Of a stretch of DNA of 64,000 nt, positions 3,989 to 45,652 are shown piece by piece. The DNA comes from Candidatus Calidihabitans tengchongensis. GTDB lineage: Bacteria > Sysuimicrobiota > Sysuimicrobiia > Sysuimicrobiales > Kaftiobacteriaceae. The stretch is from contig JAVKIE010000004.1 of the NCBI GenBank assembly GCA_031459615.1, positions 76,955 to 140,954 of the forward strand, in the 5' to 3' direction. The number at the start of each line of letters is the position of its first letter. Within the stretch, counting starts at the first letter, position 1. Made by a program: the position numbers and the translations under genes. The notes below the pieces were generated by a model. The model was given only the letters and a program-made list of their open reading frames with translations, made no database searches and was not told where the DNA came from.

Positions 3989-4859
3989 GTGGCTGTGCTC
4001 TCCTCGCGTCCGCCCGATCGGAGCTCCGGGCCCGGCATCCTCGCCCGGTTGAGGAGCGGGCTCGGGCACACTCCGGCCGATCTCTGGGTGGGGGCGGCGG
4101 AAGACCCCCCGCTGGCCCAGCGGGCTGTGGCGCGCCTGACGCCCGGCGTGACCGCGGGGGTGGTGCTGACTGTCCTGGTGGCCCGCGCCCTGGGCATGCC
4201 GGCGCCTGCGTCGCTGGTGGTAGGGCTGGGGGCCGCTCTGGTGGCGGCGGCCTGGGTCGAGCGGGCCGCCCTGGACCACGGGATCCTGCCCCGGTGGCTC
4301 CCCGTGGCCCACGTGGTCACCGCCGTCGTCCTCGTCACCATCGGCGTCCAGGCCACCGGCGGCGTGCGGGGGCCCTTCGTGTGGGCCTACAGCGTGGCGG
4401 CGGTCGTGGAGGCCATGCTGCGGGGATTGAGGTGGGGGATGGCGGTGGCCACCCTGTGCAGCGCGTTCCTGGTCGCGGGCGCCGCCCTCGGGCAGCCCGG
4501 GTGGTTCGCGTCGGTGCGGGTGACGGCCGACGCGCCCGTGGGGGCCTACCTGGTCAGCTACATCGGGCTGTTCTACACGATCGTGCTGGTGGCCGCCGCC
4601 CTGCGGGTGCAGGTCCTGGAGATCGCCCGCCTGGCGCGGACCGACAGCCTCACCGGCCTGGGGAACCTCCGGGCCCTGCGCCAGGTCCTGGAACGGGAAC
4701 AGGCGGCCGCGCCTGAGGCGCCCCTCAGCCTGCTGATGGTGGAACTGGACGGGTTCAAGGCCGTCAACGACCGCTGCGGGCCTGCTGGGTGCCGCCGATC
4801 GCGCCATGTATCAGGCCAAGGCCGCTGGCGGCGACCGCGTGGTCCCGACACCGGTGTGA
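3989..4859 (+). pseudogene. Membrane-anchored GGDEF diguanylate cyclase remnant, disrupted by an internal out-of-frame deletion that removes the catalytic core
   Basis: Frame A carries about 5 TM helices and the start of a GGDEF domain (RTDSLTGLGNLRAL...LLMVELDGFKAVNDRCG). It then runs into nonsense. From 4782 onward, frame +1 encodes only the extreme C-terminus of a GGDEF domain (LLGAADRAMYQAKAAGGDRVV*, stop at 4857-4859). The roughly 100 aa between, including the GG(D/E)EF motif, are absent. Compare the intact paralog at 29691..31244. Confidence 0.6.
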
Positions 4860-6291: not shown

Positions 6292-6314
6292 GGCGCCCCG
6301 CGGAGCGCGCGGCC

Positions 6315-7100
6315 ATGGAGCATCCCGTCGGTCCACCTTCCAGACGGCCCGCCGGGTCCCCCGTGGCCGAACTGGAGCACGTCTGCGTGGATGCCGGCGG
6401 GGAGCGGATCCTGGACGAAGTCTCCCTGCGTATCGAGCGGGGAGATTTCGTGGGCATCATCGGACCCAACGGGGCGGGCAAGACGACGCTGTTGCGGGTC
6501 CTGGTGGGGCTGGTGCGCCCGACCTGCGGGCACGTGAGGTTGTTCGGCACCGACCTGGCGGCATTCCGTCAGTGGCATCGGGTCGGGTACGTGCCCCAGC
6601 AGCCCGCGGCCGTGGACACCCGGTTTCCGGCCACCGTGCTGGAGGTGGTGCTGAGCGGGCGCACGGGGGTGCGGGGCCTGGGCCGCCCCTGGACGCCCGC
6701 CGACAGGGCGGCGGCCCTCCACGCCCTGGAGGTGGTGGGCGTCGACGACCTGCGGGACCGGCCCATCGGGCGGCTGTCGGCCGGACAGCTGCAGAGGGTC
6801 CTGATCGCCCGCGCTCTGGCCAGCCGGCCCGAGCTGCTCCTGCTGGATGAGCCCACGGTGGGGGTGGACCTGGACGCCCAGGACCAGTTCTACGCCCTGC
6901 TGCGACGGTTGAACCGGGAGATGGGCACCACCCTGGTCCTGGTCTCCCACGACGTGAGCGTGGTGGCCGCGGAGGTCACCCACCTGGCCTGTCTCAACCG
7001 CCGCCTGGTGTTCCACGGATCACCCCGCGACGCCATGGCATCGGGGGCCCTGGCCGCCCTGTATCGCGCCGACAGCCTGGTAGTGGCCCACCGGCACTGA
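6315..7100 (+). CDS. znuC: Zinc ABC transporter ATP-binding protein
   Basis: Walker A GPNGAGKTT, signature LSAGQLQRV and Walker B LLLLDEP are present. 261 aa. Confidence 0.85.
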   Translation: MEHPVGPPSRRPAGSPVAELEHVCVDAGGERILDEVSLRIERGDFVGIIGPNGAGKTTLLRVLVGLVRPTCGHVRLFGTDLAAFRQWHRVGYVPQQPAAVDTRFPATVLEVVLSGRTGVRGLGRPWTPADRAAALHALEVVGVDDLRDRPIGRLSAGQLQRVLIARALASRPELLLLDEPTVGVDLDAQDQFYALLRRLNREMGTTLVLVSHDVSVVAAEVTHLACLNRRLVFHGSPRDAMASGALAALYRADSLVVAHRH

Positions 7101-7117
7101 GTCAGGAGAAGACGTCC

Positions 7118-7915
7118 GTGGTGCCCGAGATCCTCCAGTACGACTTCATGCGGCGGGCGCTGCTGGCCGGCCTGATGATCGGGACCGTCGGGCCGATCAT
7201 CGGCGTGTTCCTGGTCCTGCGCCGCCTCAGCCTGATTGCCGACACCCTGGCCCACGTGGCGCTGGCCGGGGTGGCCCTGGGGCTGGTGACCGGGGCGCCC
7301 CCCGGCGCGGCGGCCCTGGCCGTCTCGGTGGTGGGGGCGGTGGGGGTGGAACGCCTCCGGGCATCGGGTCGGCTGTACGGGGAAGCGGCCCTGGCCCTGT
7401 ACCTGTCCGGAGGCCTGGCGGTGGCGGTCGTCCTGCTGGGGCTGGGCCGGGGTCTGACGGTGGACCTCTTCGCCTACCTGTTCGGGTCCATCACCGCCGT
7501 GCAGCCGGCCGACCTGTGGGCCATTCTGGTCCTGGGGATTCTGGTCCTGGGGGCGGTGGCCGGGCTGTACAAGGATCTGTTCGCCGTGACGTTCGACGAG
7601 GAGAGCGCCCGGGTGCAGGGCGTGCCGGTGGACGCCCTGAACCTGCTGCTGACAGTGCTGGTGGCCGTGACGGTCGTGGTGGCGATGCGCGTGGTGGGGG
7701 TCCTGCTGACCAGCGCGCTGGTGGTCATCCCCGCCGTGACCGCCCTGCGTCTGGCCCGGGCCTTCCGGGCTGCGCTGCTGCTGGCGGTCGCCGTGGCGCT
7801 GGCGGCCGTGGTGGGCGGGATGGCCGCCGCGTTTTACCTGGATCTGCCCGCCGGGGGAGCCATCGTCCTGGCGGCGCTGGCGTTGTTCGCCGTCACTTCG
7901 GCGTGGAAGCGTTGA
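7118..7915 (+). CDS. znuB: Zinc ABC transporter permease (ABC-3 family)
   Basis: 265-aa polytopic membrane protein, MVPEILQYDFMRRALLAGLMIG... typical of ZnuB/MntB. The stop lies inside the first GCGTTGAAGG repeat. Confidence 0.85.
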   Translation: MVPEILQYDFMRRALLAGLMIGTVGPIIGVFLVLRRLSLIADTLAHVALAGVALGLVTGAPPGAAALAVSVVGAVGVERLRASGRLYGEAALALYLSGGLAVAVVLLGLGRGLTVDLFAYLFGSITAVQPADLWAILVLGILVLGAVAGLYKDLFAVTFDEESARVQGVPVDALNLLLTVLVAVTVVVAMRVVGVLLTSALVVIPAVTALRLARAFRAALLLAVAVALAAVVGGMAAAFYLDLPAGGAIVLAALALFAVTSAWKR

Positions 7916-7975
7916 AGGGTCAGGGCGTTGGCACGTCGGAGCGTTGGAACCGCTGGAACGTCGGACGGTGAGCCC
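7905..7975. repeat. Intergenic GCGTTGAAGG-family repeat, copy 1 (with internal GCGTTGG direct repeats)
   Basis: gcgtggaaGCGTTGAAGGgtcagggcgttggcacgtcggagcgttggaaccgctggaacgtcgg. Shares the GCGTTGAAGG core with copies at 15122 and 18796. Overlaps the znuB stop. Confidence 0.5.
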
Positions 7976-7980
7976 GCCCC

Positions 7981-8025
7981 CGATCCCGGATTCTGATCCC
8001 TGATCTCTGATCCCGGATCCCGTCA
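7981..8025. repeat. GATC-rich low-GC palindromic repeat, copy A
   Basis: cGATCCCGGATtCTGATCCCTGATCtCTGATCCCGGATCCcg shares CTGATCCCTGATC and GATCCCGGATC with 45535-45640. Confidence 0.5.
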
Positions 8026-8982
8026 GTTCCCCTTCAGGTACCGCTCGAACCAGGCCACGGTGCGCTGCCAGGCGTCGCGCGCCGAGGGTTCGTGATAGCG
8101 GGCGCCCGTGTCGTTGAAGAAGGCGTGGTCGGCGCCCGGGTAGATGACGATCTCGTGGATCACCCCGGCCCGCTGGAGGGCCTCCCGGATGGCCGGGATG
8201 CCGGCGTTGATGCGGGTGTCCCGCTCGCCGTAGATGGCCAGGATCGCGGCGCGGATGCGGGGGACATCTTCCAGGGGCGGGTTCGGTCCGTAGAAGGGGA
8301 CCGCGGCCCGGATGGCCGGGTTGCGGGTGGCCAGGCGCCAGGTCATGCCACCCCCGAAGCAGAACCCCACGGCCCCGATGCGATCCCGCCGCACGAAGGG
8401 CTGGCCCTGCAGGTAGGCCACGCCTGCGTTCAGCATGGCCACCAGCTGCTCGGGGGGCGTCCGGCCCAGGAGGGCCGTGACTTCCGCCAGGTCCGAAAAT
8501 CGCGCGGTGCCTCCGGCGGGGGACGCCAGGTCCACCGCCAGGGCGGCATAGCCCAGCGTCGCACAGCGCCGGCAGACGTCTTTGAAGTGCTCCAGCAACC
8601 CCCGGTTCTCGTGGATGACGATGACCCCCGGGACCGGCTCGCCCAGCCGCGGGCGTGCCAGGTAGCCGTGGACGGTGAGCGAGTCCGACGGAAACGTGAC
8701 CATGCCGGCGTGGAGGGCGGGATCGTCGGGCGGCACGGTCACCCCCGACGCCTGGGCGGCCGGCGCGGGTGCGCCAGCCGCCGCAGCCGCCACCTCCTCG
8801 GCGGACGCCGCGATGCCCAGTTCCCGCAGAACCGGCAGGGCCACGGCGGCCCCGCCGGCCATGAGGGCGATGCGCCTCAGGAACTCGCGGCGGGGGAGCC
8901 GCCCGTGCCGGTAGTCCTCGGCCCACTCCTCGACGATGTAGCGCTCCAGGTCTCCCACCACGCCACCCCCTCGCGCGGGCAT
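8023..8982 (-). CDS. Dienelactone hydrolase family protein (Tat-secreted alpha/beta hydrolase)
   Basis: ORF 8023..9009. Twin-arginine motif RREFLRRIALMAGGAAVALP. DLH-family motifs GFCFGG and C-terminal HAFFND are present. The start is uncertain: M1, or M10 at 8982. Confidence 0.7.
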   Translation of the reverse strand: MPARGGGVVGDLERYIVEEWAEDYRHGRLPRREFLRRIALMAGGAAVALPVLRELGIAASAEEVAAAAAGAPAPAAQASGVTVPPDDPALHAGMVTFPSDSLTVHGYLARPRLGEPVPGVIVIHENRGLLEHFKDVCRRCATLGYAALAVDLASPAGGTARFSDLAEVTALLGRTPPEQLVAMLNAGVAYLQGQPFVRRDRIGAVGFCFGGGMTWRLATRNPAIRAAVPFYGPNPPLEDVPRIRAAILAIYGERDTRINAGIPAIREALQRAGVIHEIVIYPGADHAFFNDTGARYHEPSARDAWQRTVAWFERYLKGN

Positions 8983-9158
8983 CCCGCAGGGACCGCCCGG
9001 GCCACGCATCAGGGGAACTCCTATCGGGGGCGTGTCACGCCCATGTGAATGGCGCGGCCCCTTCCCACCTGGGGGCCCGGGGCCTGCCTGACCGAGGGGT
9101 GGCAGATCCCGCCGATCCCGCGGATCGGGTAGAGTAGATAGCAGGAGGAGGACACGCC

Positions 9159-9971
9159 ATGTCGGTGGTGGCGCGTCTCACCGATGCGGACCTGCGCTTT
9201 GTGGCGGCGACGCTGCTGCCCGACCGGGATCCCCGCCGGGCCGTCGAGCGCCTGCGGGAGAACCCGGAGGCCCTGGAGGAGCTGCTGGAGGACGACCGGC
9301 TGCTGGAGAGGCTGCGGTCCGGCGACGCCCTGGTCCGGGTGACGCCCTGGCTGCTGTTCAGCGTCCTCCTGCGGCGCGTGCGGCGGGAGCTGCGGACGGC
9401 GCCGTACACCGTGGAGAGACTGGGCACCGAGCGGGTGCCGGTCTTTGATGCCCGGCGCGCCGGCGATCTCCTGGCGGACCCGCAGATCCTGGACTACCTG
9501 GTGGAGATGCTGGTCTCGTTCACCCGCACCGACAGTTTTCTGCTGGAGGTGGAGGAAGGGGGGCGGGTGCGGCGCCGCCGCTTCAGTGACTTCGACAGTG
9601 AGGACATGATCGCCCTGGCCGCCCTGATGCCCGACGAACTGCGCTTTCCCATCCTGCGGCGCGTCGCCGACATCGCCCTGTTCATTACGGGCATCTTCCC
9701 CGAGCACGTGGATCCCCTGGCCCGGCCTCCCGGCGCAGCCGCGCCGCCCGCCAGCCGCTGGCGGTTCCGGCGGACCCTCGAGGAGTACGAGGAGGAGGGG
9801 CGCCGCTTCTACCGCCTGGCCGCCAGCCACCGGATGGCCCGACGCCTGGGAATGGAGCGCCCGCTGGAGGCGCTGGCCGAGATGTTCCCCCTGGCCCGCA
9901 AACCGCTGAACGTGCTGGCCTCCCAGTACATCGGCACCAGCCGGTTTGTGCTGTTCGGCGGCGCAGGGTAG
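9159..9971 (+). CDS. Hypothetical protein, Arg/Glu/Asp-rich with no recognisable family
   Basis: 270-aa ORF preceded by a strong RBS AGGAGGAGGA. Its composition is balanced and protein-like. The antisense ORF 9021..10031 is Q/H/G-rich junk. Confidence 0.55.
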   Translation: MSVVARLTDADLRFVAATLLPDRDPRRAVERLRENPEALEELLEDDRLLERLRSGDALVRVTPWLLFSVLLRRVRRELRTAPYTVERLGTERVPVFDARRAGDLLADPQILDYLVEMLVSFTRTDSFLLEVEEGGRVRRRRFSDFDSEDMIALAALMPDELRFPILRRVADIALFITGIFPEHVDPLARPPGAAAPPASRWRFRRTLEEYEEEGRRFYRLAASHRMARRLGMERPLEALAEMFPLARKPLNVLASQYIGTSRFVLFGGAG

Positions 9972-10040
9972 GGGACGGGTGCCGACCGCGGACGCGGCGA
10001 GGTCGGGCAGGCGACGGCTGCCCGCCGGCATGACGGCTTG

Positions 10041-11054
10041 TCAGGCGCGGCAGCGGTCCAGGAGCGCGCTCCAGACGTCCTCCCGGCCGGGCAGGGGCGG
10101 GCCGTCCAGGACTACCCGGTCCGCCAGTCCCCGGTAGCGCTCCCGCAGGCGGTCGCCCACGTCCTCGGGCCCGCCGACGACCGCCACCTCGTGGAGGATC
10201 TCGTCGGGGATGAGGGTTCCCATCTCCGCCCACGCGCCCCGGGCGGCGAGCGTCCGCAGCCGCACGCCCAGCTCTCCCCACCCGTGGTGGTCCAGCACGC
10301 GCCGGTACGAGGGCGTGCTGGCATAGAACGCGATGCGCTCCCGCACCCGCGCCGCCGCATCGCGGACCGCCGTCGCGGACTCGCCCACCCCCACCAGCAC
10401 GCTGGCCACCACCGGGCACGGATCCGGGCGACCGCCGCGGGCGCGGCCGCGGGCAAGGGCAGGGCGGATGACGTCGGTCAGGTAGCCGCGGGTGTGCAGC
10501 GGTTGGACGAGAAACCCGTCGGCCACCTCTCCGGCCACCTGGCACATCCGGGGGTTGACCCCCGCCGTCATGATGGGGATCGGGTAGGGGTGGGGGGCGG
10601 GGGAGAAGGCGGGCGTCATCAGGGTGAGGGTGTAGTACCGGCCGCGGTAGGCCAGCGGCGCGCCGGTGCGCCAGGCTTCCCAGACCGCCCGCACCGCCCC
10701 CACCACATCGCGCAGCCGGGCCGCCGGGGCATCCCAGGTCAGGCCGTACCGGCGTACGATGTGGGCTCGCACCTGGGTGCCCAGCCCCAGCACGAAACGC
10801 CCCCGGGAGGCCTCCGCCAGGTCGTAGGCCAGATGCGCCAGGACGGTGGGGCTGCGGGTGAAGGCGATGGCCACGCCCGTCCCGACCAGCAGTCGCGCGG
10901 AGTGCTCGGCCGCCAGGGCCGCGCCCAGGAATGGATCGTGGGCGGTCTCGCTGACCCAGACGCCATCAACCCCCAGCCGCTCGGCCGTCCGCACAACATC
11001 TGGGACCTCCGCCAGTGTCCGGTACATCATGTGGATGTCGATGCGCACGGTCAT
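10041..11054 (-). CDS. LLM-class (luciferase-like) flavin/F420-dependent oxidoreductase
   Basis: 337 aa from MTVRIDIHMMYRTLAEVPDVVRTAERLGVDGVWVSETAHDPF, a typical LLM TIM-barrel N-terminus. The start ATG is at 11052-11054. Confidence 0.75.
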   Translation of the reverse strand: MTVRIDIHMMYRTLAEVPDVVRTAERLGVDGVWVSETAHDPFLGAALAAEHSARLLVGTGVAIAFTRSPTVLAHLAYDLAEASRGRFVLGLGTQVRAHIVRRYGLTWDAPAARLRDVVGAVRAVWEAWRTGAPLAYRGRYYTLTLMTPAFSPAPHPYPIPIMTAGVNPRMCQVAGEVADGFLVQPLHTRGYLTDVIRPALARGRARGGRPDPCPVVASVLVGVGESATAVRDAAARVRERIAFYASTPSYRRVLDHHGWGELGVRLRTLAARGAWAEMGTLIPDEILHEVAVVGGPEDVGDRLRERYRGLADRVVLDGPPLPGREDVWSALLDRCRA

Positions 11055-11226
11055 CCTCTCCTCTGAAGGTGGACGGAGCGCCGGTCCGGAAGTTCCACGC
11101 GTCCGGGCGTCCTCCCGCCGCAGGAGAAGTCTCCCGGCGGGAGAAACAGAGGGGGACCGGGAGAGGCGGTATAGGAAGGGCACTCCAGGGGAACGGCAGG
11201 TGGTGAGCGCACGCTGAGGGAGGGGC

Positions 11227-12879
11227 ATGAAGGGCGTCGCAGCCGCACTCCTGGCGGTCGTGGCGATGGGTGTGCCGCCGGCATCCGCGTCCGGCCACGC
11301 CGCCGGCGTGCGGGTGGTGGTCAACGGCGTTGAGGTGCCCCTCCCCGCGCCTGCCCTGATCCGCGACGGCCAGGTCCTGGCTCCCTCCACGGGACTGTGG
11401 GACCCGCTGGGAGCGGTGGCCGCCTACTACGAGGCCGACCGCACCGTCGTGGTCACCAACCGCCTGCAGACCACCATCCGGCTGCGGATGGGCGAGGCCC
11501 AGGCCACGGTCAACGGGGAGGCCCGCCCGCTGCCCACCGCGCCGGTGCTGGTGGACGGCGTTCCGTACATCCCCGTGCAGGCGGTGGCGCAGCTGCTGGG
11601 GGCCTGGGTGGCGTTTGACGACGCCGCGCGGATCCTGCACGTCAGTTCCCAGATCACCGCCCTCACCCCCCAGGTCAAGGACGGCATCGTGGAGGTGGTG
11701 GTGGATGCCACCGGGCCTGTGCAGGTGGACTCGACCGTCCTGACCAACCCCGACCGCCTGGTGGTCGACCTCCAGAACGCCGCCCTGCGGGTGGCCCAGC
11801 GGGAGTACCCCGCGGGAGCGGCGGGCGTGATCCGCATCCGCGTCGGCCAGTTTCAGATCAAGCCCTACATCACCCGGGTGGTATTCGACCTGACCGATCC
11901 GGTGGATCTTCAGGTGACGGCGTCGCCCACCACCTACGCGGTGACGCTGCGGGTGACCCCCAAGACCTCCACCCGGGCCGACGCCCCGCCACAGCAGGGC
12001 CCGGCCCGGATCCTGGGCGTGGCTTTCGAACCCTCCGGACAGGCCGGGCGGGTCGTGGTGCAGACCACCGGGCCGGTGCAGTACCGGGTTCGGGAGTTCG
12101 TCTACCCGGACCGCCTGGCGGTGGACATCGCCGACACTGTCTTCGTCCCCGTGCGGCAGGAGATCGCGGTCCACGGGCCGGCGGTGGCGGTGGTGCGGGC
12201 GGCGCAGTTCACCGCGCGCCCCCCGGTTACCCGGGTGGTGGTCACCCTCAAGCGCAAGCTCAACTACCTCATCGCCCAGTCCGGCGGCAGCCTGGTCATC
12301 GACCTGGACGCATCCGTCGCCCGGGCCCACGTGGTGGCCCTCGACGCCGGCCACGGGGGCAAGGATCCGGGTGCGCTGGGTCCTACGGGCCTGCGGGAGG
12401 CGGACGTGGTCCTGGACATTGCCCGCCGCGTCCGGGACCTCCTGGTGGCCGACGGAATCCGCGTGCTGATGATCCGCGACGCGGACGTGTTCGTGGACCT
12501 GTCCGAGCGCACTCGCCTGGCCCGGGAGGGCGGGGCGACGGTGTTCATCAGCATCCACGCCAACGCCAGCCCGCGGGCGGCGGTCGACGGCACCGAGACC
12601 TACTACCTCACTCCCCAGAGCCTGGCCCTGGCGCAGATGATCCAGGAGGAACTGGCGGCGGCCCTGGACCTGCCCAGCCGGGGCGTGAAGACGGCGGGCT
12701 TTGTGGTGCTGCGGGACAGCGGGGTGCCCTCGGTGCTGGTGGAGACGGCGTTCATCTCCCACCCCGACGGCGAGGCGCGCCTGCGGGATGACGGCTTCCG
12801 CCAGCGCATCGCCGCCGCTGTCCACCGCGGCATCGTGCGGTTCCTGGCCATCTACCCTGTGCCCCAGGCGGCGCCCTGA
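11227..12879 (+). CDS. N-acetylmuramoyl-L-alanine amidase with an N-terminal copper-amine-oxidase-like domain and two AMIN domains
   Basis: Signal peptide, CuAO_N-like stretch (VNGVEVPLPAPALIRDGQVLAP ... VDGVPYIPVQAVAQLL), two AMIN repeats, then Amidase_3 motifs (ALDAGHGGKDPGA ... FISIHANAS). Confidence 0.8.
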   Translation: MKGVAAALLAVVAMGVPPASASGHAAGVRVVVNGVEVPLPAPALIRDGQVLAPSTGLWDPLGAVAAYYEADRTVVVTNRLQTTIRLRMGEAQATVNGEARPLPTAPVLVDGVPYIPVQAVAQLLGAWVAFDDAARILHVSSQITALTPQVKDGIVEVVVDATGPVQVDSTVLTNPDRLVVDLQNAALRVAQREYPAGAAGVIRIRVGQFQIKPYITRVVFDLTDPVDLQVTASPTTYAVTLRVTPKTSTRADAPPQQGPARILGVAFEPSGQAGRVVVQTTGPVQYRVREFVYPDRLAVDIADTVFVPVRQEIAVHGPAVAVVRAAQFTARPPVTRVVVTLKRKLNYLIAQSGGSLVIDLDASVARAHVVALDAGHGGKDPGALGPTGLREADVVLDIARRVRDLLVADGIRVLMIRDADVFVDLSERTRLAREGGATVFISIHANASPRAAVDGTETYYLTPQSLALAQMIQEELAAALDLPSRGVKTAGFVVLRDSGVPSVLVETAFISHPDGEARLRDDGFRQRIAAAVHRGIVRFLAIYPVPQAAP

Positions 12880-12890
12880 GGCCGCCGGCC

Positions 12891-13649
12891 GTGCGGCTGA
12901 CGGTGCTGGGCAAGTGGTCGCCCTACCCGCCGGCCGGCGGGTCGTGTCCCGGATACCTGGTGGAGGCCGGCGGGGTGCGCATTCTCCTGGATTGCGGATC
13001 GGGCGTGGTGGCGGCCCTGCACCGGGTATGCACGGCGTTCGACCTCCACGCCGTCGTCCTCACCCATCTGCACCCCGACCACGTCACCGACATCTACGTG
13101 CTGCGCAACGAGCTGGCCTACGGACGGCTGCCCGGTCCCCCGGCGCCGCCCCTGCCCCTGTTCGCGCCCGCGGACGCCGCCCGGGCGCTGGTGGCGTGGC
13201 TGCCGCGACCCGAGTCCCGGCGCGAGTTCGCCGCAGGGTTCCACTTCCGTCCCCTGGAGGAAGGCGCCGGAGAGGTGGGCGGGGTGCGGCTGCGCTTTGC
13301 GCCCACCCTCCACCCCGTGCCCTGCCATGCGGTGGAAGTCCGGGCCGGCGGCCGCCGCCTGGTGTATACCGCCGACACCGGCCCGTCGGCGCAGGTGGAG
13401 GAGATGGCCCGGGGGTGCGACCTGCTGCTGTGCGAGGCGACCCTGCGGGAGGCCGACGCGGACCTCGCCGTCTCCCTGGGACACCTCACGGGGTCCCTGG
13501 CCGGATCCCTGGCCGCCCGGGCCGGGGCCCGCCGCCTGCTGCTCACCCACCTGCACCCGCGCGGCGACGTCCAGGAGACCCAGGCGGCCGCAGCGAAGGA
13601 GTTTGCCGAAGCCGAGGTAGCCCAGGAAGGCGCCACCTACGAGGTGTGA
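12891..13649 (+). CDS. MBL-fold metallo-hydrolase (RNase Z / beta-lactamase superfamily)
   Basis: HLHPDH motif present. 252 aa. GTG start. Confidence 0.7.
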   Translation: MRLTVLGKWSPYPPAGGSCPGYLVEAGGVRILLDCGSGVVAALHRVCTAFDLHAVVLTHLHPDHVTDIYVLRNELAYGRLPGPPAPPLPLFAPADAARALVAWLPRPESRREFAAGFHFRPLEEGAGEVGGVRLRFAPTLHPVPCHAVEVRAGGRRLVYTADTGPSAQVEEMARGCDLLLCEATLREADADLAVSLGHLTGSLAGSLAARAGARRLLLTHLHPRGDVQETQAAAAKEFAEAEVAQEGATYEV

Positions 13650-13655
13650 GGCAGG

Positions 13656-14390
13656 ATGCCCCGTCCCGACGGCCGGGGGCCGGAGGAGCTGCGTCCGGTC
13701 CGCATCACCCGGCGCTACCTGAAGTATGCCGAGGGGTCCGTCCTCATCGAGGTGGGGGACACCCGGGTCGTGTGCTCCGCGAGCGTGGAGGAGCGCGTTC
13801 CCCAGTGGCTGCGGGGATCGGGGCAGGGGTGGATCACCGCCGAGTACGGGATGCTCCCCCGGTCGACCCAGGAGCGCAGCCCCCGGGACGTACTGCGGCC
13901 CGGGGGGCGGGTGGTGGAGATCCAGAGGCTGGTGGGCCGCTCGCTGCGGGCGGCGGTGGACCTGGAGCGGCTGGGGGAGCGGACCATCTGGATCGACTGC
14001 GATGTCATCCAGGCGGACGGCGGGACCCGGACGGCGGCCATCACCGGGGCCTTCGTGGCCCTGGTGGACGCCCTCCACCTGCTGCGCCAGACGGGGATCC
14101 TGACGGTCTGGCCCGTGCGGGAGGTCCTGGCGGCCACCAGCGTCGGCATCGTGGACGGGCAGCCTGTGCTGGATCTGACCTTCGCCGAGGACTCGCGGGC
14201 CCGGGTGGACATGAACGTGGTGATGACGGAATCAGGGCGCTTCGTGGAGGTCCAGGGAACCGCCGAGGGCTTCCCCTTCACCCGGGACGAACTGCTGCAG
14301 CTGCTGGGGCTGGCCGAGCGGGGCATCCGCCAGCTGATCGCCCTCCAGAAAGAGGTCCTGGCCGACGTCCTGGGCGCCCCGCGCCGCTAG
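13656..14390 (+). CDS. rph: Ribonuclease PH
   Basis: [46 protein letters not shown]... is an RNase PH hallmark. 244 aa. Confidence 0.9.
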
Positions 14391-14403
14391 AGCCGGTATC
14401 CTC

Positions 14404-15108
14404 GTGGGGACCCGCTCGCGTCCCTCGCGCACGCGCCGCAGGCCCGCCCGGACCTCCTCCCCGGCATCGCCCGCCCCCGCCGGGGGTCTGCTGGATGTGG
14501 TCCTGGCCACCCGCAACCCCGGCAAGGTCCGCGAGATGCTGGCCCTGCTGCGGGACCTCCCCCTGCGGGTGTACGACCTGACCGCCTTCCCCCGGGTGCC
14601 CGATCTGCCGGAAGAGGGGCAGACGTACACCGAAAACGCCATCAGCAAGGCCCTGACCGTGGCGCGGCTGACCGGGCGGGTGGCGCTGGCGGATGACTCC
14701 GGGATCGAGATCGCGGGTCTGGGCGGCGGCCCCGGTCCCCACTCCCGCCGCTTTCTGGGGCCTCAGGCCTCGGACGCCGCCCGCAACGCCCGCATCCTGA
14801 AGATGCTCCAGAATGCGCCGCCGGAGGCCCGCCGGGCGCGCTACCGGGCGGTGGTGGCGGTAGCCACGCCCGAGGGAGTCGTGCGGACCTTTGAAGGGGT
14901 GTGCGAGGGCGAGATCGCCCCGGCCCCCCGGGGATCCCACGGGTTCGGTTATGACCCCATCTTCCTCGTGCCGGAGTTCGGCAAGACCATGGCCCAGCTG
15001 CCGCCGGCGGTGAAGAACCGCATCAGCCACCGGGCGCGGGCGATCGCCGCGGCGCGGCCGTTCCTGCGGATGTTGGCCACCGGCCGCCCCACGCCGTCCG
15101 AACCGTGA
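14404..15108 (+). CDS. rdgB: Non-canonical purine NTP pyrophosphatase (RdgB/HAM1)
   Basis: VVLATRNPGKVREM ... SHGFGYDPIF motifs present. The true start is probably downstream of 14404, where the listed ORF begins right after rph, near 14490. Confidence 0.8.
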   Translation: MGTRSRPSRTRRRPARTSSPASPAPAGGLLDVVLATRNPGKVREMLALLRDLPLRVYDLTAFPRVPDLPEEGQTYTENAISKALTVARLTGRVALADDSGIEIAGLGGGPGPHSRRFLGPQASDAARNARILKMLQNAPPEARRARYRAVVAVATPEGVVRTFEGVCEGEIAPAPRGSHGFGYDPIFLVPEFGKTMAQLPPAVKNRISHRARAIAAARPFLRMLATGRPTPSEP

Positions 15109-15121
15109 GCCCTCATGAAAG

Positions 15122-15145
15122 GCGTTGAAGGTTGGAGGTTGAAGG
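15122..15145. repeat. GCGTTGAAGG-family repeat, copy 2
   Basis: GCGTTGAAGGttgGAGGTTGAAGG immediately after the rdgB stop. Confidence 0.5.
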
Positions 15146-15160
15146 TCACTGATGGCCAAT

Positions 15161-15256
15161 CTTCCCGATCCTTGGAATCTGCTCGATCTTCCCAATCAGA
15201 TTGCGCAGATCGAGAAGATTGCGTAGATTGAGGAGATCGCGCAGGTCGAGGGAGGA
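15161..15256. repeat. Degenerate 18-nt tandem repeat array (about 5 units), low GC
   Basis: cttcccgatccttggaat / ctgctcgatcttcccaat / cagattgcgcagatcgagaa / gattgcgtagattgagga / gatcgcgcaggtcgaggga. Ends at the ligD stop codon. Confidence 0.45.
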
Positions 15257-17986
15257 TCAAAGTCTCCGTTCCAGCAGCTGGCGGTGCCTGCGCATTCCGG
15301 CCCACGGATCCCGCCGCCGGCGCATCCTCTGCGGGACGGTGGCGAGGGTGTACTCCAGGGGATCCACGCCGCGCTCCAGTTCCCGCCAGGTCAGGGGAAA
15401 CGACACCGTCGCCTGAGGGGTGGGACGCAGGCTGTAGGCGCTGGCCAGGGTGGCGCCCAGGCGGTTCTGGTTGTAGTCCACAAACACCTTGCCCACCCGC
15501 CGCTCGACGGGCCAGGCGGTGGTCAGCCGGTCGGGGTACCGCGCCGCCAGGTACTCGGCCACCGTGCGGGCGAAGGCGTGGGTCTGCTCGTAGGTGTAGC
15601 GCCGGGCCACCGGCACGAAAATGTGCAGGCCGGTCTTGCCGGAGGTCTTGACGAAGGCCACCAGGCCCAGGGTCGCCAGCACGTCCCGCAGGAGCAGTGC
15701 CGCCTCCCGGGCGGCCTCGAACCCGCGGCGGGTGTAGGCCGGATCCCGCTCGCCTCCGGTCGGCGGGGGAAGCCCGCCGTCGGGCGTCAGGTAGGGGTCG
15801 AGATCGAACACCACGTAGTCGGGACGACCCAGGACGCTGGCCCGCAGGGCGTCCTCCCCGGAGGCGAAGTCCTCCCCCGCCGGCGGTCCGTCACCGCGGC
15901 CCAGGGGGGTGATCCGGCTGAACCACGGGTGCAGCTCGATGTTGGCCAGTTGCGCCAGCCACAGCAGCGTCCGCACGGTGTTGCACACCGGGGCCAGCAG
16001 GACCCGCCGCTCGCTGTCGGTCCAGATGGCCGCCCGGCGGACGAACGCGGGCGCGTCGGGCACGTCCTTCTGGTAGAAGCTGTCACCGGCGATCCCGTCG
16101 GGAAAGCGCCGCAGGGTCAGCGGCCGATCCCGCAGATGCGGGAGGATCCAGGGCGCCATCTCGCGGTAGTACCGGATGAGATCGCCCTTGGTGTATCCCG
16201 CGTCCGGCCAGAACGCCTTGTCCAGGTTGGTGAAGGCGACACCGGGCACCCCGCGGATGGCCGGCGCGGCGCCGGGGGACGTCGGCCGGGCGCGGGGGCG
16301 GCCACCGCGTCGCGCCTGCGGGCGGGAAGGGGCGGCCGCCGGGCGCTCCAGGGACACCTCCGACGCCGGCTTGTCGGTGCGCAGGCCGACGAACACCGGC
16401 ATCCGCAGCAGGCCGTCCCGCGTCCACCCGGCGTGTTCCACCTCCACCACCAGCTCGGGTCGCACCCACGTGACGGAGGGGGGAGCCGGAGGCGGGGGAT
16501 CGAACGGACACGCGGGCGCCACCCGGTCGCGCAGGAGGGCGGCCAGGTGGCGGAGCTGGCTGTCGGTGAACCCGCTTCCGCAACGCCCCACGTACTGCAG
16601 GCGGCCGTTCTCATAGGCCCCCAGCAGAAGCGCACCGAACGCGCCCTGGCGCGCGCCGCGGCCGCGGGTGAACCCTCCCACCACGGCCTCCAGGCGCTGG
16701 ACGACCTTGATCTTCACCCATGCCGCCGAGCGCTCTCCGGGACGGTAGGGGGCGTCGGCCCGCTTGGCCATGATGCCCTCCACCCCCAGCTTCTGGGCGG
16801 CCCGGTAGAAGGCCACGCCGGTGGCCGCCACCGCCTCCGACAGGCGCAGGACGGGCCCGGAGCGTACCAGCGCTTCCAGGACCTGCCGGCGCTCGGACAG
16901 GGGCCTGTGGGTGAGCCGGTGGCCGTTGATGTACAGGACGTCGAACACGCAGTAGGCTATCGGGGCATCGGACGCCGAGGGACCGCCGTGAAGGCGCGGC
17001 TGCAGGAGGGCAAACCGGGGACGACCGCGGGCGTCCAGCGCCACCACCTCGCCGTCCAGCACCACATCCGGCCAGGGCTGGGCGTGCAGGGCCTCCACCA
17101 CCTCCGGGAACTGCGGGTTGAGGACCAGGCCGCCGCGGCTGCGCAGCGTCACCTCCCGTCGCGGACCGCGGGTGCGGACGGTGGCCAGAACGCGGACGCC
17201 GTCCCACTTGATCTCGAACAGCCACCGCGGATCGTCAAACGGGTTCCGCGCGGCCGTGGCCAGCATCGGCCGGATGGACTCCGGCGGGGAGTCGGGTCCG
17301 GGTCGGTCCAGGCCCAGGCGCCGGAGGACGGCATGCAGCCGGCGCGGGATCGCCGCCCGGCGGGGCTCCCGGTCCGCCGATGGGGCCCCGGTCCGGGATC
17401 GGCGCGCAGCCGACCACCGCACGCCGGAGTCGGCCCGGATCTGGTCAATGGTGCGCCCGCTGGTGACCGAGGTCGCCGGGTCGGGCAGCCTCCATCCGGC
17501 AACGGCGTGGGCGTCGGCGGCCTTCATCAGCAGCCACTGGGTCTGGCCCCCCAGGCGAGTCCGGACCAGGTGAAACTCGCCCCGCAGCCTCCGCCCGTGC
17601 AGCAGAAGGGTCAGCTTGCCGGCCTGGTAGGCCCCCTCGGGGTCGCCCTCGCGGACCTCGTAGGTGCCCAGGTCCCACACCAGGACCGGGCCGGCGCCGT
17701 AGTGCCCGTCGGGGATCACGCCTTCAAATTCCAGATACTCCACCGGATGATCTTCCACCGGGACGGCGAGGCGGCGGTGCGAGGGATCCAGGGACGGTCC
17801 TTTGGGCAGGGCCCACGACTTCAAGACCCCACCCATCTCCAGACGGAAGTCCCAGTGGCGGCGGGTGGCATGGTGCTCCTGCACCACGAACCGCAGGGGT
17901 CCCGGCCTGCGCCGGGGGACGGGCACCCCCGGGGGTTCGGGGGTGTGGGGGAAGCGGCGCTTGCGGACGTACTCGTCCAGGCTCAC
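15257..17986 (-). CDS. ligD: ATP-dependent DNA ligase D, multidomain, N-to-C order 3'-phosphoesterase, ligase, polymerase/primase
   Basis: N-terminus HWDFRLEMGGVLKSWALPKGPS...VEDHPVEYLEFEGVIP is a LigD phosphoesterase domain. Middle PMLATAAR...WLFEIKWDGVRV is ligase motif I KxDG. C-terminus FTNLDKAFWPDAGYTKGDLIRYYREMAPWILPHLRDRPLTLRRFPDG is the LigD Pol domain. 909 aa. Confidence 0.85.
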   Translation of the reverse strand: MSLDEYVRKRRFPHTPEPPGVPVPRRRPGPLRFVVQEHHATRRHWDFRLEMGGVLKSWALPKGPSLDPSHRRLAVPVEDHPVEYLEFEGVIPDGHYGAGPVLVWDLGTYEVREGDPEGAYQAGKLTLLLHGRRLRGEFHLVRTRLGGQTQWLLMKAADAHAVAGWRLPDPATSVTSGRTIDQIRADSGVRWSAARRSRTGAPSADREPRRAAIPRRLHAVLRRLGLDRPGPDSPPESIRPMLATAARNPFDDPRWLFEIKWDGVRVLATVRTRGPRREVTLRSRGGLVLNPQFPEVVEALHAQPWPDVVLDGEVVALDARGRPRFALLQPRLHGGPSASDAPIAYCVFDVLYINGHRLTHRPLSERRQVLEALVRSGPVLRLSEAVAATGVAFYRAAQKLGVEGIMAKRADAPYRPGERSAAWVKIKVVQRLEAVVGGFTRGRGARQGAFGALLLGAYENGRLQYVGRCGSGFTDSQLRHLAALLRDRVAPACPFDPPPPAPPSVTWVRPELVVEVEHAGWTRDGLLRMPVFVGLRTDKPASEVSLERPAAAPSRPQARRGGRPRARPTSPGAAPAIRGVPGVAFTNLDKAFWPDAGYTKGDLIRYYREMAPWILPHLRDRPLTLRRFPDGIAGDSFYQKDVPDAPAFVRRAAIWTDSERRVLLAPVCNTVRTLLWLAQLANIELHPWFSRITPLGRGDGPPAGEDFASGEDALRASVLGRPDYVVFDLDPYLTPDGGLPPPTGGERDPAYTRRGFEAAREAALLLRDVLATLGLVAFVKTSGKTGLHIFVPVARRYTYEQTHAFARTVAEYLAARYPDRLTTAWPVERRVGKVFVDYNQNRLGATLASAYSLRPTPQATVSFPLTWRELERGVDPLEYTLATVPQRMRRRRDPWAGMRRHRQLLERRL

Positions 17987-18070
17987 GGTCCAGGGTCGCG
18001 CGCTCCTGATCGGTGGAGACGGCGCCAGTCCTACTGTACCATCCCCGGGTCCTCGGGGGTTCGGGACCGA

Positions 18071-18790
18071 TCAGGGCGCGGGCGAGGCGCCGATCAGCCG
18101 GGCCAGGGTGCGGGCGTACTGCGGCGCCGGGGCGCCCTCTTCGTGGGTGAAGTAGGCGTAGACGTCGCGCCCCTCGGCCAGCCGCTGGCGGATCCAGTCC
18201 GCCCACCGGCGCAGGTCGTCCCCGGCGTACCGCGAGCGGTGCAGCCGGAGATAGCTCACCGGGCCCACCACCTCCCGATGCGCGGGCTGCTCATCGGTCT
18301 CCGCCACGCACAGCGACACCCCTGCGGCATCCAGCAGGCGGTAGACGGCCGGATCCTGCCAGCTGGGGTGGCGGACCTCCAGGACCGCCGGCGCGCCGGG
18401 CCGCAGCGCGCCCAGGAAGGCGGTGAGCAGGCCCCGATCGTACCGCAGCGACGGCGGCAGCTGGAACAGGACGGGGCCACGCCGGTCCCCCAGCGCCCGC
18501 AATCGCTCGGACAAAAACGCCAGGTCGCCGTCCACGTCGGCCAGGCGTTTGAGGTGGGTGATGCGCCGGTGGGCCTTGACCGCGAAGCGGAACTCGGGCG
18601 GCACCGCCTCCGCCCACCGGGCGAGGGTGGCCGCGGTCGGGTAGCGGTAGAAGGTGTTGTTGATCTCCACCGTGGAAAAGGTCCGGGCGTAGTGGGCCAG
18701 CATCTCCCCGACCGGCAGGCCGGCGGGGTAGAACGACCCCCGCCACTCGGGATAGCTGAAGCCGGAGGTCCCCACGAACGCGCGCGGCAT
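18071..18790 (-). CDS. DUF72 (YecE-like) domain protein
   Basis: Start at MPRAFVGTSGFSYPEWRGSFYP, the canonical DUF72 N-terminus. 239 aa. Sits between ku and ligD. Confidence 0.75.
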   Translation of the reverse strand: MPRAFVGTSGFSYPEWRGSFYPAGLPVGEMLAHYARTFSTVEINNTFYRYPTAATLARWAEAVPPEFRFAVKAHRRITHLKRLADVDGDLAFLSERLRALGDRRGPVLFQLPPSLRYDRGLLTAFLGALRPGAPAVLEVRHPSWQDPAVYRLLDAAGVSLCVAETDEQPAHREVVGPVSYLRLHRSRYAGDDLRRWADWIRQRLAEGRDVYAYFTHEEGAPAPQYARTLARLIGASPAP

Positions 18791-18795
18791 AGGGA

Positions 18796-18858
18796 AAGCG
18801 TTGAAGGCTGAAGGCCGTGACAGGCCGTCTCCTGTGACCTTCAACCTTCAACTTTCAC
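18796..18858. repeat. GCGTTGAAGG-family repeat, copy 3, forming a long imperfect hairpin
   Basis: aaaGCGTTGAAGGCTGAAGGccgtgacaggccgtctcctgtgacCTTCAACCTTCAAC. The arms GTTGAAGGCTGAAGG and CCTTCAACCTTCAAC are inverted repeats. Lies between the ku stop and the DUF72 start. Confidence 0.55.
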
Positions 18859-18881
18859 CGCCGCTCAACCTCAGGGCGCGG

Positions 18882-19721
18882 TCATCGGTGCCGTTCCCGC
18901 AGGGCCGCGGCGCGGGCGGCCGTCGAGCGGGGGCGGCGGGCCGCCGGTTTCTCCCGCCGGGTCAGCTGCAGGCTGCGGCGCAGGGCCTCCATCAGGTCCA
19001 CCACCTTCTCCGGGCCCCGGGCGGCCGGGGCGGCCACCGGCTGCCCTTCCACCTTGGCCGCGATCAGCTTCTGCAGCGCCTCCCGGTACTCGTCGCGGTA
19101 CTCGGCGGACGAGAACGGCGCCGCCAGGCCCTCGATGAGCTGAAGGGCCATCTTCTTCTCGTTGGGGTGGATCTTGACCTGGACCGGCAGGTCGGGGATG
19201 TCCGCCACCCTGCGCACCTCGTCGGCGTAGTACAGGGTGGTCATCACCAGGGCTCCGTCGTAGGGGCGCACGGCCACCAGGTGCTCCTTGTCCTTGATGA
19301 CGACCTTGCCCACGGCCACCCGCCCGGCGTCCACGAGGGCGTCGTGGAGCAGGCGGAATGCCTTCTGGCCGCCCTCATCGGGGGCCAGGTAGTAGGACTT
19401 CTCATAGTACAGAGGGTCGATCTCCGACGGATCGGCGAAGGAGGTGACGGCCACCGTCCGGGCGGTCTCCAGGGGGATGCTCTCCAGATCCTCGTCGGTC
19501 ACCGGCACGAACCGGCCCTTGGCGTACTCGTAGCCGCGGACGACGTCGTTCCACTCCACCAGCTGGTCGTGGTGTGGACAGTACCGGCGGTTCTGAATGG
19601 GGGTCAGGCAGCTGCGGTGCAGGAGCCGGAAGCGGACGTCCTTGGGCTCGGTGGCGGTATAGAGCCGGACGGGGATGGTCACCAGCCCGAAGGTCAGGTG
19701 GCCCTTCCAGATGGGGCGCAT
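18882..19721 (-). CDS. ku: Ku protein (NHEJ DNA end-binding)
   Basis: MRPIWKGHLTFGLVTIPVRLYTATE... is the bacterial Ku signature. 279 aa with a basic C-terminal tail. Confidence 0.9.
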   Translation of the reverse strand: MRPIWKGHLTFGLVTIPVRLYTATEPKDVRFRLLHRSCLTPIQNRRYCPHHDQLVEWNDVVRGYEYAKGRFVPVTDEDLESIPLETARTVAVTSFADPSEIDPLYYEKSYYLAPDEGGQKAFRLLHDALVDAGRVAVGKVVIKDKEHLVAVRPYDGALVMTTLYYADEVRRVADIPDLPVQVKIHPNEKKMALQLIEGLAAPFSSAEYRDEYREALQKLIAAKVEGQPVAAPAARGPEKVVDLMEALRRSLQLTRREKPAARRPRSTAARAAALRERHR

Positions 19722-19964
19722 CGGCGGTCCCTCCGGTCACCGCGTTCTGCTGTCAGACGGCGGATGGCGTAGGGGTATTATACCCTTCCCGGCGGGGGTT
19801 TCCCAGACGAGGGCGCGGTCGGGCGGGCCGCTCCGCGCGGGAGCCGGGGCGTCCCGATCGGGGCCCGCGGGGCGGCTGGCCGCGGCGCAGGGGAGGAGCC
19901 CGCCGGCCAACCGCCAATTTCACCCCCCGGGATAACCATACCGAACCGCCCGGGAGCTACCTGG

Positions 19965-20546
19965 ATGCCGCCGGCCCTGAAGGAGTTCTTTCGCTACTGG
20001 TCCCTGACGTTCGCCGTCCTGTTGTTCTACCTGTTCGCGGCGGTGGTGGCGGGGATGGACCTGTGGGAGTCGCTGATGGAGACGGTTCGCAAGCGGCGCA
20101 GCCAGCTGGCCGCCCGTCCGCCGCTGCTGGATCCCAATCCCCTCAAGGGCAAGACGGTGGCGGAGACGCTGGGGATGGGGCCGGGTCAGCTGCCCGACGA
20201 GAGGCGCGGGTGGGTGCTGGAGCGCGCCCGCGCCGCGGCCGCCCGCCTGGGCCTGCGGGTACACATCGTGGTCCTGGAAGACTCCATGAGGCACTTTTTG
20301 GTCCACTTCGCCCACGGCGGCCAGCTCCGCACGTACCGGGTGGACAAGACGTGGGTGGCCGATGCCCGGGCCGGCAACGCCCAGCGCGAGGCCCAGATCG
20401 TCGACCTGCTGGAACGCTACCTGGCCAGCGACTTCCTGGGACAGCACCACCGGCGCCCGCCGCGCACCACCGAGCTGGCCCGGGAGGCCGCCGGCAAGGC
20501 AGCCCCCCGTCCGGCGTCCGCCGGTCAGCCCGCGCCCGAATCCTGA
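19965..20546 (+). CDS. Hypothetical membrane-anchored protein
   Basis: 193-aa ORF with one N-terminal TM helix (YWSLTFAVLLFYLFAAVVAG). Its local GC and codon usage are lower than surrounding intergenic sequence. Ends 10 nt before tRNA-Pro. Confidence 0.5.
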   Translation: MPPALKEFFRYWSLTFAVLLFYLFAAVVAGMDLWESLMETVRKRRSQLAARPPLLDPNPLKGKTVAETLGMGPGQLPDERRGWVLERARAAAARLGLRVHIVVLEDSMRHFLVHFAHGGQLRTYRVDKTWVADARAGNAQREAQIVDLLERYLASDFLGQHHRRPPRTTELAREAAGKAAPRPASAGQPAPES

Positions 20547-45640: not shown

Positions 45641-45652
45641 GGTCGTCCTCGT

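Follow-up and report, generated by a model that had tools for sequence, protein, structure and literature searches.

In cyanobacteria, hairpins made of 7-bp short tandemly repeated repetitive (STRR) sequences lie between hupS and hupL, where a role in transcript stability or in translational coupling has been proposed (PMC2670836). Heptamers are also the commonest unit of long simple sequence repeats, according to Mrazek 2007 as cited in PMC4679880. We have analysed a stretch of 64,000 nucleotides (hereafter the window) from Candidatus Calidihabitans tengchongensis, a member of an uncultured, high-GC Armatimonadota lineage (assembly GCA_031459615.1, contig JAVKIE010000004.1, positions 76,955 to 140,954 of the forward strand), in which repeats of short tandem units occupy the spacers at several gene ends. 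All position numbers refer to the window, and L-numbers designate the loci or contigs of relatives that were compared with it. An initial annotation of this DNA had noticed a core shared by three gene ends, namely the 3' end of znuB, the region just after rdgB and the spacer between ku and DUF72, and had read it as a family resembling repetitive extragenic palindromes (REP) or miniature inverted-repeat transposable elements (MITE), or else as a shared terminator or regulatory motif. Based on repeat statistics, predicted folds and comparison with relatives, we conclude that these sites are probably STRR-like intergenic hairpin spacers built of tandem 7-8-nt units, as in cyanobacterial STRR and long simple sequence repeats.

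Tandem units at the gene ends of the window

The motif recurs well above random frequency in the window. Measured against dinucleotide-preserving shuffles of the window, the exact 10-mer GCGTTGAAGG is found three times (7909, 15122 and 18798, all on the + strand) where 0.08 matches are expected, and none of 100 shuffles reaches three; GTTGAAGG has 7 matches for 0.73 expected and TGAAGGYTGRAGG has 5 for 0.12. The core described for the three gene ends is real as far as the 10-mer goes, which is exact at all of them, but its extended form GCGTTGAAGGNTGRAGG is confined to 15122 and 18798 and has no match at 7909 even with one mismatch. The gene contexts given for the copies were correct (the ABC-3/ZnuB gene ends at 7915, the Ham1/RdgB gene ends at 15108, and the 18.8-kb copy lies between the ku stop at 18882 and the DUF72 start at 18790), as was their lower GC content: the window stands at 0.73, but 15109-15256 at 0.53 and 7916-8022 at 0.66.

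The copies are arrays of tandem units, of period 7 (GTTGAAG/GTTGGAG) at 15.1 and 18.8 kb and of a degenerate period 8/16 (RCGTTGRA) at 7.9 kb, and it is their common unit family, rather than the threefold copying of one element, that accounts for the recurrence of the 10-mer. Tandem Repeats Finder (TRF) places period-7 arrays at 15124-15146, 18837-18857, 7978-8021 and 45539-45638. Two unit families are present, GTTGRAG with its octamer relative RCGTTGRA, and GGGATCA/CTGATCC; GTTGRAG and GGGATCA/CTGATCC each occur at two or three loci of the 64 kb. The four repeat-rich spacers are all intergenic and at gene ends, three of them at convergent junctions and one between co-directional genes, and the arrays usually fill the interval from the stop codon to the next gene. 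Where an array is accompanied by an inverted complementary array, as in the ku-DUF72 spacer, at 45.5 kb and in part at 15.1 kb, the two form a long hairpin, and the hairpin spacers of the window score z = -3.4 to -4.8.

It could be argued that the three 10-mer matches are accidents of low-complexity intergenic DNA, since the first copy has nothing but the 10-mer in common with the others, lies across a stop codon and differs in period, and since the octamer pattern RCGYTGRA is not significantly enriched (20 matches for 13.7 expected). We hold this to be extremely improbable, because of the shuffle statistics for GCGTTGAAGG and GTTGAAGG and because the unit recurs in relatives, the RCGTTGRA octamers of that same copy being the ku-DUF72 hairpin unit in related lineages.

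Anatomy of the four spacers

One hairpin lies within a gene string on the - strand (15257-19721) that the repeats both flank and interrupt, and whose synteny is kept in relatives: ku (18882-19721), DUF72 (18071-18790) and ligD (15257-17986). Copies 3 and 4 form the hairpin (18792-18859, - strand), with arms of a heptamer pair each, GTTGAAG GYTGAAG (TRF period 7); in the transcribed strand GTTGAAGGTTGAAGG is the 5' arm and CCTTCAGCCTTCAAC, the + strand copy of the initial annotation, is the 3' arm, and the - strand matches to GTTGAAGG at 18838 and 18845 are the inverted partner. The long hairpin announced for this copy is borne out by its predicted fold, -47.5 kcal/mol with z = -4.4 on the - strand against -40.1 kcal/mol with z = -2.5 on the + strand, and the spacer alone gives z = -4.8. 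The hairpin occupies the 91-nt spacer and closes 1 nt ahead of the DUF72 ATG, at which no Shine-Dalgarno sequence is visible.

On the other side of ligD, copy 2 (15122-15150, + strand) begins 14 nt past the stop of the Ham1/RdgB gene (14404-15108, + strand, start codon provisional; Ham1p_like by Pfam in the gene calls of sister contigs), in a 148-nt spacer common to the convergent ligD. It reads GCG followed by GTTGAAG GTTGGAG GTTGAAG GTCAC, that is 3.3 heptamer units (TRF period 7) including the exact 10-mer. In the minimum free energy structure of 15109-15256, the heptamer array (GAAGGTTGG) is paired with CCAATCTTC in a short stem (15127-15164, + strand), and the rest of the spacer is a long imperfect palindrome of 9/18-nt units resembling AGATTGCGCAGATCGAGG (15159-15237; an inverted repeat with 39-nt arms, 74% complementary; TRF period 18, 3 copies). 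The + strand of the whole spacer folds at -59.9 kcal/mol (z = -3.6). Upstream of rdgB, the contigs of the sister metagenome-assembled genomes (MAGs) all end at, or diverge from, position 14385, between the RNase PH gene and rdgB, and in L001 a gene for an rve-family integrase (L001:15366-15942) stands in place of the sequence past this point; together these suggest the insertion of an insertion sequence (IS), or an assembly break at a repeat, in those assemblies.

One site of the second unit family is 45536-45644, between a zinc-ribbon gene (stop 45526; Pfam zinc-ribbon matches) and a convergent open reading frame (ORF) of 67 aa. Two hairpins follow each other here, GGGATCA x3 paired with TGATCCC x3-4 and then a CCGGATC-type palindrome, recovered both as TRF arrays (45539-45560, 45571-45596 and 45616-45638) and as inverted repeats; the fold is about -67 kcal/mol, with z = -3.4 to -3.6 on both strands. 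The CTGATCC/CCGGATC family is common to this site and to 7978-8021.

The latter array belongs to the fourth spacer, the 107 nt between the znuB-like ABC-3 permease gene (7118-7915, + strand; Pfam PF00950, E = 3.8e-67) and a convergent gene of the dienelactone hydrolase (DLH) family (8023-9009). Copy 1 (7909-7966, + strand) is a degenerate 8/16-nt tandem array, GCGTTGAA GGGTCAGG GCGTTGGC ACGTCGGA GCGTTGGA and so on, with a lag-8 identity of 0.52 (p = 2e-4) and a lag-16 identity of 0.60; its first unit holds the 10-mer and also the TGA stop of znuB (7913-7915). The rest of the spacer is a heptamer array of about six CCCTGAT/CTGATCC/CCGGATC units (7978-8021, + strand; TRF period 7, 6.4 copies; lag-7 identity 0.61). 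In L119, a relative with 89% ZnuB identity, the spacer measures 11 nt, and the protein ends in ..AVSALTPRPPR* as in other 89% relatives, against ..AVTSAWKR* in the window (7890-7915); both versions finish with Arg-stop, CGC TGA in L119 and CGT TGA in the window. By this comparison, the 3' end of znuB was remodelled where the repeat spacer starts. The final 11 nt of the window spacer (CCCGGATCCCG) are similar to the entire L119 spacer (CCCGGGCCCCG), a thin line of evidence which suggests that the array grew from a local seed. Beyond the DLH gene, a small GATCCCGCC GATCCCGCG GATCGGG array with a palindrome, of the GGATC family, is seen at 9105-9126 in the divergent spacer upstream of a gene starting at 9159.

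The arrangement at 7916-8022 invites another reading, in which a convergent junction without complementary arms would load Rho: with a G-rich array ahead of a C-rich one, each of the opposing transcripts would have a distal tract rich in C and poor in G, usable as a rut site. Read along the + strand, the G-rich part is 7909-7966 and the C-rich part 7978-8021; the order is the same when read in reverse, and the two arrays do not pair together. The same layout is found at two convergent junctions of Tepidiforma flava (CP115149, L023), each filled entirely by arrays: at 6297-6563, (GGAGGTT/GAAGGTT) x22 starts from the TAG stop and is followed by (CTCCCCTT) x10, and at 2634-2945 (GGTTGRA) x5 is followed by (CCTCCCG) x9 and (TCCCCTTC) x11, in both cases with the G-rich array first, the C-rich second and no mutual pairing. 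However, this argument is one of base composition, the layout is known from these three examples only, and most other copies are hairpins that would sequester the C-rich arm; we consider a rut function quite improbable.

Distribution of the repeats among relatives

The gene order GGDEF..G6PD-ku-DUF72-ligD-<Ham1 is kept in relatives; the repeats are not. An identical Ku protein is encoded in Armatimonadota MAGs including GCA_031459455.1. In L119 and L121, both with 89% ZnuB identity, the spacer lengths are 11 nt (znuB-DLH), 42 or 23 nt (Ham1-ligD) and 40 nt (DUF72-ku), against 107, 148 and 91 nt in the window; these three spacers are short and GC-rich, and no period-7/8 array was detected in 20 kb. 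Across relatives the Ham1-ligD spacer has 42, 23 or 11 nt, and in another relative the two genes overlap. Between ku and DUF72, L034 (92% Ku identity) and L035 (78%) have only small GC palindromes. Since relatives at 89-92% protein identity have the same genes without the arrays at the checkable sites, the repeats of the window are lineage-specific additions. We tried to describe these additions as clean insertions, but the window spacers do not align with those of the 89-92% relatives as a simple insertion and no boundaries could be defined.

The unit family is nevertheless dispersed within this group, as indicated by a match at a non-orthologous intergenic site of L025, which belongs to the same MAG as L034. 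Here GTTGAAG/GTTGGAG x5 and CTTCAAC x3 form a hairpin between co-directional genes, about 180 nt past one stop and about 40 nt ahead of the next start, and its arm is 96% identical to copy 2 over 28 nt (80% over 60 nt). We also considered that this hairpin starts at a TAA stop, but the ORF concerned is spurious by GC-frame analysis and the idea was rejected.

A Ku-based scan of metagenome contigs yielded 80 loci. In 642 kb from the clade, TRF finds 43 period-7 and 48 period-8 arrays, whereas periods 5, 10 and 11 account for only 9, 4 and 1, and in 305 kb of more distant Ku-bearing contigs it finds 7 of period 7 and 2 of period 8. Of the 83 distinct period-7/8 arrays, about half are accompanied by an inverted partner no more than 200 nt away. 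The ku-DUF72 spacer is a hot spot for hairpins with tandem-unit arms, which are present there in at least ten lineages (the window, L037, L039, L040, L041, L042, L045, L046, L052 and L054). The arms consist of some 3-5 tandem units, and the unit differs by lineage. L041 has GTTGAAG x4 facing CTTCAAC x4, the same unit at the orthologous site as in the window, at 78% Ku identity. Elsewhere the unit is GGTCGTA (L037), the RCGTTGRA octamer of copy 1 (L040, L046, L047, L048, L052, L054 and L067), CTACACAA (L042-L044), YTGGAT (L045) or a degenerate octamer (L039). Apart from L039 (z = -1.2), the hairpins of the nine further lineages score between z = -3.5 and z = -9.5, and no significant fold is found in the non-repeat ku-DUF72 spacers of other lineages.

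These comparisons bear on the suggestion of a shared regulatory motif, according to which the tandem units would be binding sites of a sequence-specific regulator or RNA-binding protein that co-regulates znuB, rdgB and ku-DUF72-ligD. The exact 10-mer does adjoin three operons, two of them in DNA repair, many of the G-rich units contain GGA, and tandem heptamers upstream of start codons have been proposed as targets of post-transcriptional regulators in Beggiatoaceae (PMC4679880). Yet the 89-92% relatives have the same genes without the motif at the checkable sites, other lineages carry quite different units between ku and DUF72 (for instance CTACACAA or GGTCGTA), and two of the three genes have the motif on their 3' side. 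In addition, the units of a hairpin are base-paired rather than exposed, and a spacing of 7-8 nt is out of step with the helical repeat of double-stranded DNA. We therefore regard binding sites as very improbable.

To look beyond this clade, the 19-mer GTTGRAGGYTGAAGGTCAC was searched in 185,579 species genomes, the window's own genome not being among them. The 25 matches are single per genome and spread over many phyla, where about 18 are expected by chance; 8 of them represent one conserved Acidimicrobiia site and about 10 are genuine GTTGAAG-type arrays. The taxa with arrays of this type are Tepidiforma flava, Ignavibacteriales, Paracoccaceae, Cyanobacteria, Anaerolineae and Prevotella. In a collection this large, such scattered arrays are compatible with an independent origin of a simple unit.

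Two further observations stand apart. The eight Acidimicrobiia genomes (L009, L010, L020, L022, L027, L028, L031 and L032) share one conserved intergenic block, GTTGAAGGTTGAAGGTCAC adjoining ..AACCCACAACTTCATCCACAACTTGGGGAAAACTTCAAC.., which is unrelated to the Armatimonadota repeats; its DnaA-box-like TCATCCACA motifs suggest that it may be a replication origin or a dnaA-promoter region. In two related Chloroflexota/Anaerolineales genomes (L024:7236-7254 and L026:5325-5343), GTGACCTTCAACCTTCAAC lies 3-4 nt upstream of an ATG start, and more heptamer-like units (GGTCGAA, AGTCAAT) continue from it in the direction opposite to this start codon.

Turnover of the hairpins

Changes in the number of whole units are seen between related genomes, as expected from slippage: CCTTATCC is repeated x7 in the G6PD-trypsin hairpin of L037 but x4 in that of L041, and GTGTAGAT is present x5 in L042 and L044 but x4 in L043. 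More drastic changes are found among L037, L041 and L082, which are 95-98% identical over about 20 kb. Between ku and DUF72, the first has a GGTCGTA hairpin (L037:10829-10915), the second a GTTGAAG hairpin with an unrelated loop (L041:10832-10932) and the third a spacer of 2 nt (L082:1608-1611). This empty site has the appearance of a deletion, in that the spacer was lost along with the ku stop and the DUF72 ATG (changed to ATA); neither a direct repeat nor a target-site duplication is found when its junctions are compared with the filled sites of L037 and L041. A second site, the MoxR-trypsin spacer (L037:6290-6410, L041:6240-6360), has identical flanks in the two genomes, but the hairpin is made of octamers in L037 (GCGGTAWC/GTTACCGC) and of heptamers in L041 (AGGAAAC/TTTCCTG). 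Units found in place of one another are in many cases related, such as GCGGTAAC and AGGTAAC, or GGTTGAA and GGTCGTA, RCGTTGAA and GTTGGAT. Such relatedness is a hint of concerted change occurring rapidly at the site itself, although for any single pair the similarity is not statistically compelling.

Hairpins of the same build also occur within a coding sequence. The ligD genes of L037, L041 and L082 contain two inverted octamer pairs (GGGAACG x4 ... CGTTCCC x4), in frame and one per interdomain linker (L037:12653-12740 and 13758-13890; L041:12789-12876 and 13895-14027; L082:3468-3555 and 4573-4705). Their loops, of about 29 and 71 nt, are unrelated. The window LigD has no such hairpins, and BLASTP alignments show gaps at these places.

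Taken together, whole-hairpin replacement and the in-frame copies make it conceivable that the repeats are small non-autonomous mobile palindromic elements, comparable to REP or the hairpin-forming REP doublets (REPIN), MITE, Correia elements or Rickettsia palindromic elements (RPE), and moved by a transposase encoded elsewhere, for example of the REP-associated tyrosine transposase (RAYT)/IS200 type acting on single-stranded hairpins, with the GTTGAAG arms as terminal inverted repeats. Hairpins are present, absent or replaced between genomes 95-98% identical whose flanks are the same, and the sites are empty in the 89-92% relatives. One unit family is found at non-orthologous sites (15122 and 18796 in the window, and L025), a single ligD gene holds two GGGAACG hairpins whose loops are unrelated, and the in-frame copies recall RPE. 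Several findings nevertheless speak against mobility. No target-site duplication distinguishes L082 from L037 and L041, the former looking like a deletion; the copies have in common a short unit but no full-length consensus, loop or defined ends; and the length and sequence of the unit differ from site to site. The relatedness of replacing units (GCGGTAAC/AGGTAAC; GGTTGAA/GGTCGTA/RCGTTGAA) fits change in place, the resemblance between the end of the 7.9-kb spacer and the ancestral 11-nt spacer (CCCGGATCCCG/CCCGGGCCCCG) suggests a local seed, and the 19-mer has single matches per genome across the species collection. Mobile elements are thus an unlikely explanation, though not a negligible one. 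As for the REP/MITE-like family proposed at the outset, what stands is the presence of non-random, structured repeats at several gene ends; the copies are not one such element, because they align only through the tandem 7-8-nt unit, their loops and flanks are unrelated, and comparable filled and empty sites show no target-site duplications.

Proposed origin and possible role

Under the preferred reading of STRR-like hairpin spacers, the arrays would arise by replication slippage, and template switching between the arms would keep them complementary. After transcription they could function as stable RNA hairpins, which at convergent junctions may shield the 3' end or bring about termination with no U-tract involved; in the ku-DUF72 spacer, the hairpin may bring the ku stop and the DUF72 start together, or serve in processing or stability. 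Judging from position and predicted fold, we infer a role as RNA hairpins at transcript ends and between cistrons.

A number of observations weigh against this account, either in its mechanism or in its function. Eight sister contigs, 99.96-100% identical to the window, show no indels and no change in array copy number. The structure prediction asked of the repeats gave significant folds for the 18.8-kb and 15.1-kb spacers, but copy 1 has no significant hairpin (z = +1.1 and +0.4). The absence of the hairpins from the closest relatives means that they are not essential. No U-tract follows any hairpin, the tails reading GCUUUCCCUAUG and GGAUCAAAGUC, so that these are not canonical intrinsic terminators, which counts against a simple terminator role of the kind considered in the initial annotation. 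Nor does the fold favour one strand: at eleven spacers, sense and antisense show no consistent direction, the transcribed strand being more stable in the window ku-DUF72 spacer, the L025 hairpin and the G6PD spacer of L037, and the antisense in the ku-DUF72 spacer of L037 and in both LigD-internal copies. For the same reason, we rejected the idea of RNA-level selection inferred from G-U asymmetry. Finally, slippage alone hardly explains the swap of a whole hairpin, loop included, between genomes 95% identical, and hairpins in frame inside ligD, where a terminator cannot function, suggest a process at the level of DNA, maintained wherever it can be tolerated.

The last two points lead to a further alternative, namely that a DNA-level process as yet undescribed creates entire palindromic cassettes, exchanges them and deletes them, both at set positions by gene ends and even in frame within the linkers of ligD, in this clade and possibly in Tepidiforma and others. 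Such a cassette, with arms of about four tandem 7-8-nt units, may be a very small mobile or templated element, or may result from hairpin elongation and template-switch synthesis at breaks; ordinary microsatellite slippage may then be insufficient. We put this forward tentatively, as a doubtful alternative to the STRR-like reading. If it were true, a dedicated mechanism of whole-cassette replacement would constitute a new class of very small genome-shaping element.

Searches of the window for known signals gave nothing at the repeats. In a terminator scan of 7000-20000, a single site was returned, at 9423 and not at a repeat, and a scan for consensus promoters likewise returned nothing at the repeats. 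Rfam covariance models had no match at the repeats either, and at E <= 1 only chance-level matches to miRNA models were added. The sole Rfam matches at gathering thresholds are three tRNA genes, at 20559-20631 (- strand), 31364-31436 (+ strand) and 45955-46029 (- strand).

Comparison with known systems

The account given here replaces the vague notion of a REP/MITE-like motif by that of tandem-unit hairpin spacers, and widens the range of STRR-type repeats beyond cyanobacteria, to an uncultured high-GC lineage of Armatimonadota; our literature search for such repeats in Armatimonadota or Chloroflexota found nothing. The practical consequences are that these spacers break metagenome assemblies, shift gene ends and can pass for regulatory motifs. 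The ku-DUF72 series, in which more than ten lineages have differing units, differing copy numbers or no hairpin, offers a natural comparison for role and origin, the questions that STRR have raised since 1990. We know of no description of STRR with the turnover or the in-frame ligD copies seen here.

When set against the established classes, the repeats of the window share several traits with REP, REPIN and bacterial interspersed mosaic elements (BIME) associated with RAYT: they are extragenic and dispersed, form hairpins, and are clustered at gene ends and convergent junctions. However, a REP is a single conserved imperfect palindrome of 20-40 nt with many near-identical copies, and no such palindrome in many copies was found here; only the 7-8-nt unit is shared, arm, loop and unit vary, and copy 1 has no palindrome. 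No RAYT gene came to light, though no search aimed at one was made. For MITE, Correia elements and RPE, one would look for terminal inverted repeats with target-site duplication and a clean pair of filled and empty sites, which the comparison of L082 with L037 and L041 did not provide, and for a full-length consensus, which is lacking in that loops are unrelated for the same arms (the window against L025 and L041, and the two ligD copies). The palindromic hairpins in frame in the interdomain linkers of ligD in L037, L041 and L082 are alike to RPE; but RPE are 100-150 bp long with a family consensus, whereas the arms here are tandem octamers with unrelated loops, and the window ligD is devoid of them. 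Intrinsic terminators resemble these spacers in having a stable stem-loop directly downstream of stops, often common to convergent genes, but differ from them in that the present hairpins have no U-tract and much longer stems (20-35 bp), and are found even inside an ORF in relatives.

Tandem-repeat classes come closer. The TAACTGA heptamers of Beggiatoaceae are likewise intergenic tandem heptamers near start codons, with the same heptamer in several phyla (PMC4679880), but they are direct repeats only, mostly just upstream of starts and with one dominant heptamer, whereas inverted pairs, several families and 3' positions are seen here. With the long simple sequence repeats of 5-11-nt units, insofar as they are described by Mrazek et al. 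2007 via PMC4679880, our arrays share a length above chance, a preference for heptamers, a sporadic distribution and polymerase slippage as the proposed origin; complementary inverted pairs filling whole spacers are, on the same account, not a defining feature of that class. The features found here which are common to STRR and long simple sequence repeats are tandem units of 5-11 nt (typically 7), an intergenic location, several loci, copy change by whole units and a hairpin between cistrons. The STRR of Nostoc/Anabaena hupS-hupL are alike in their intergenic tandem heptamers, in the use of one unit family at several loci, in the inverted-array hairpin between co-transcribed genes and in a function that is unproven. 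They differ from the present repeats in that the latter occur in Armatimonadota at 73% GC, are made of other units, with 8-nt and 9/18-nt beside 7-nt ones, and have only 2-7 units per arm. By analogy, then, the spacers of the window most resemble the cyanobacterial STRR heptamer hairpin, so that the kind appears to be known and the Armatimonadota example to be new.

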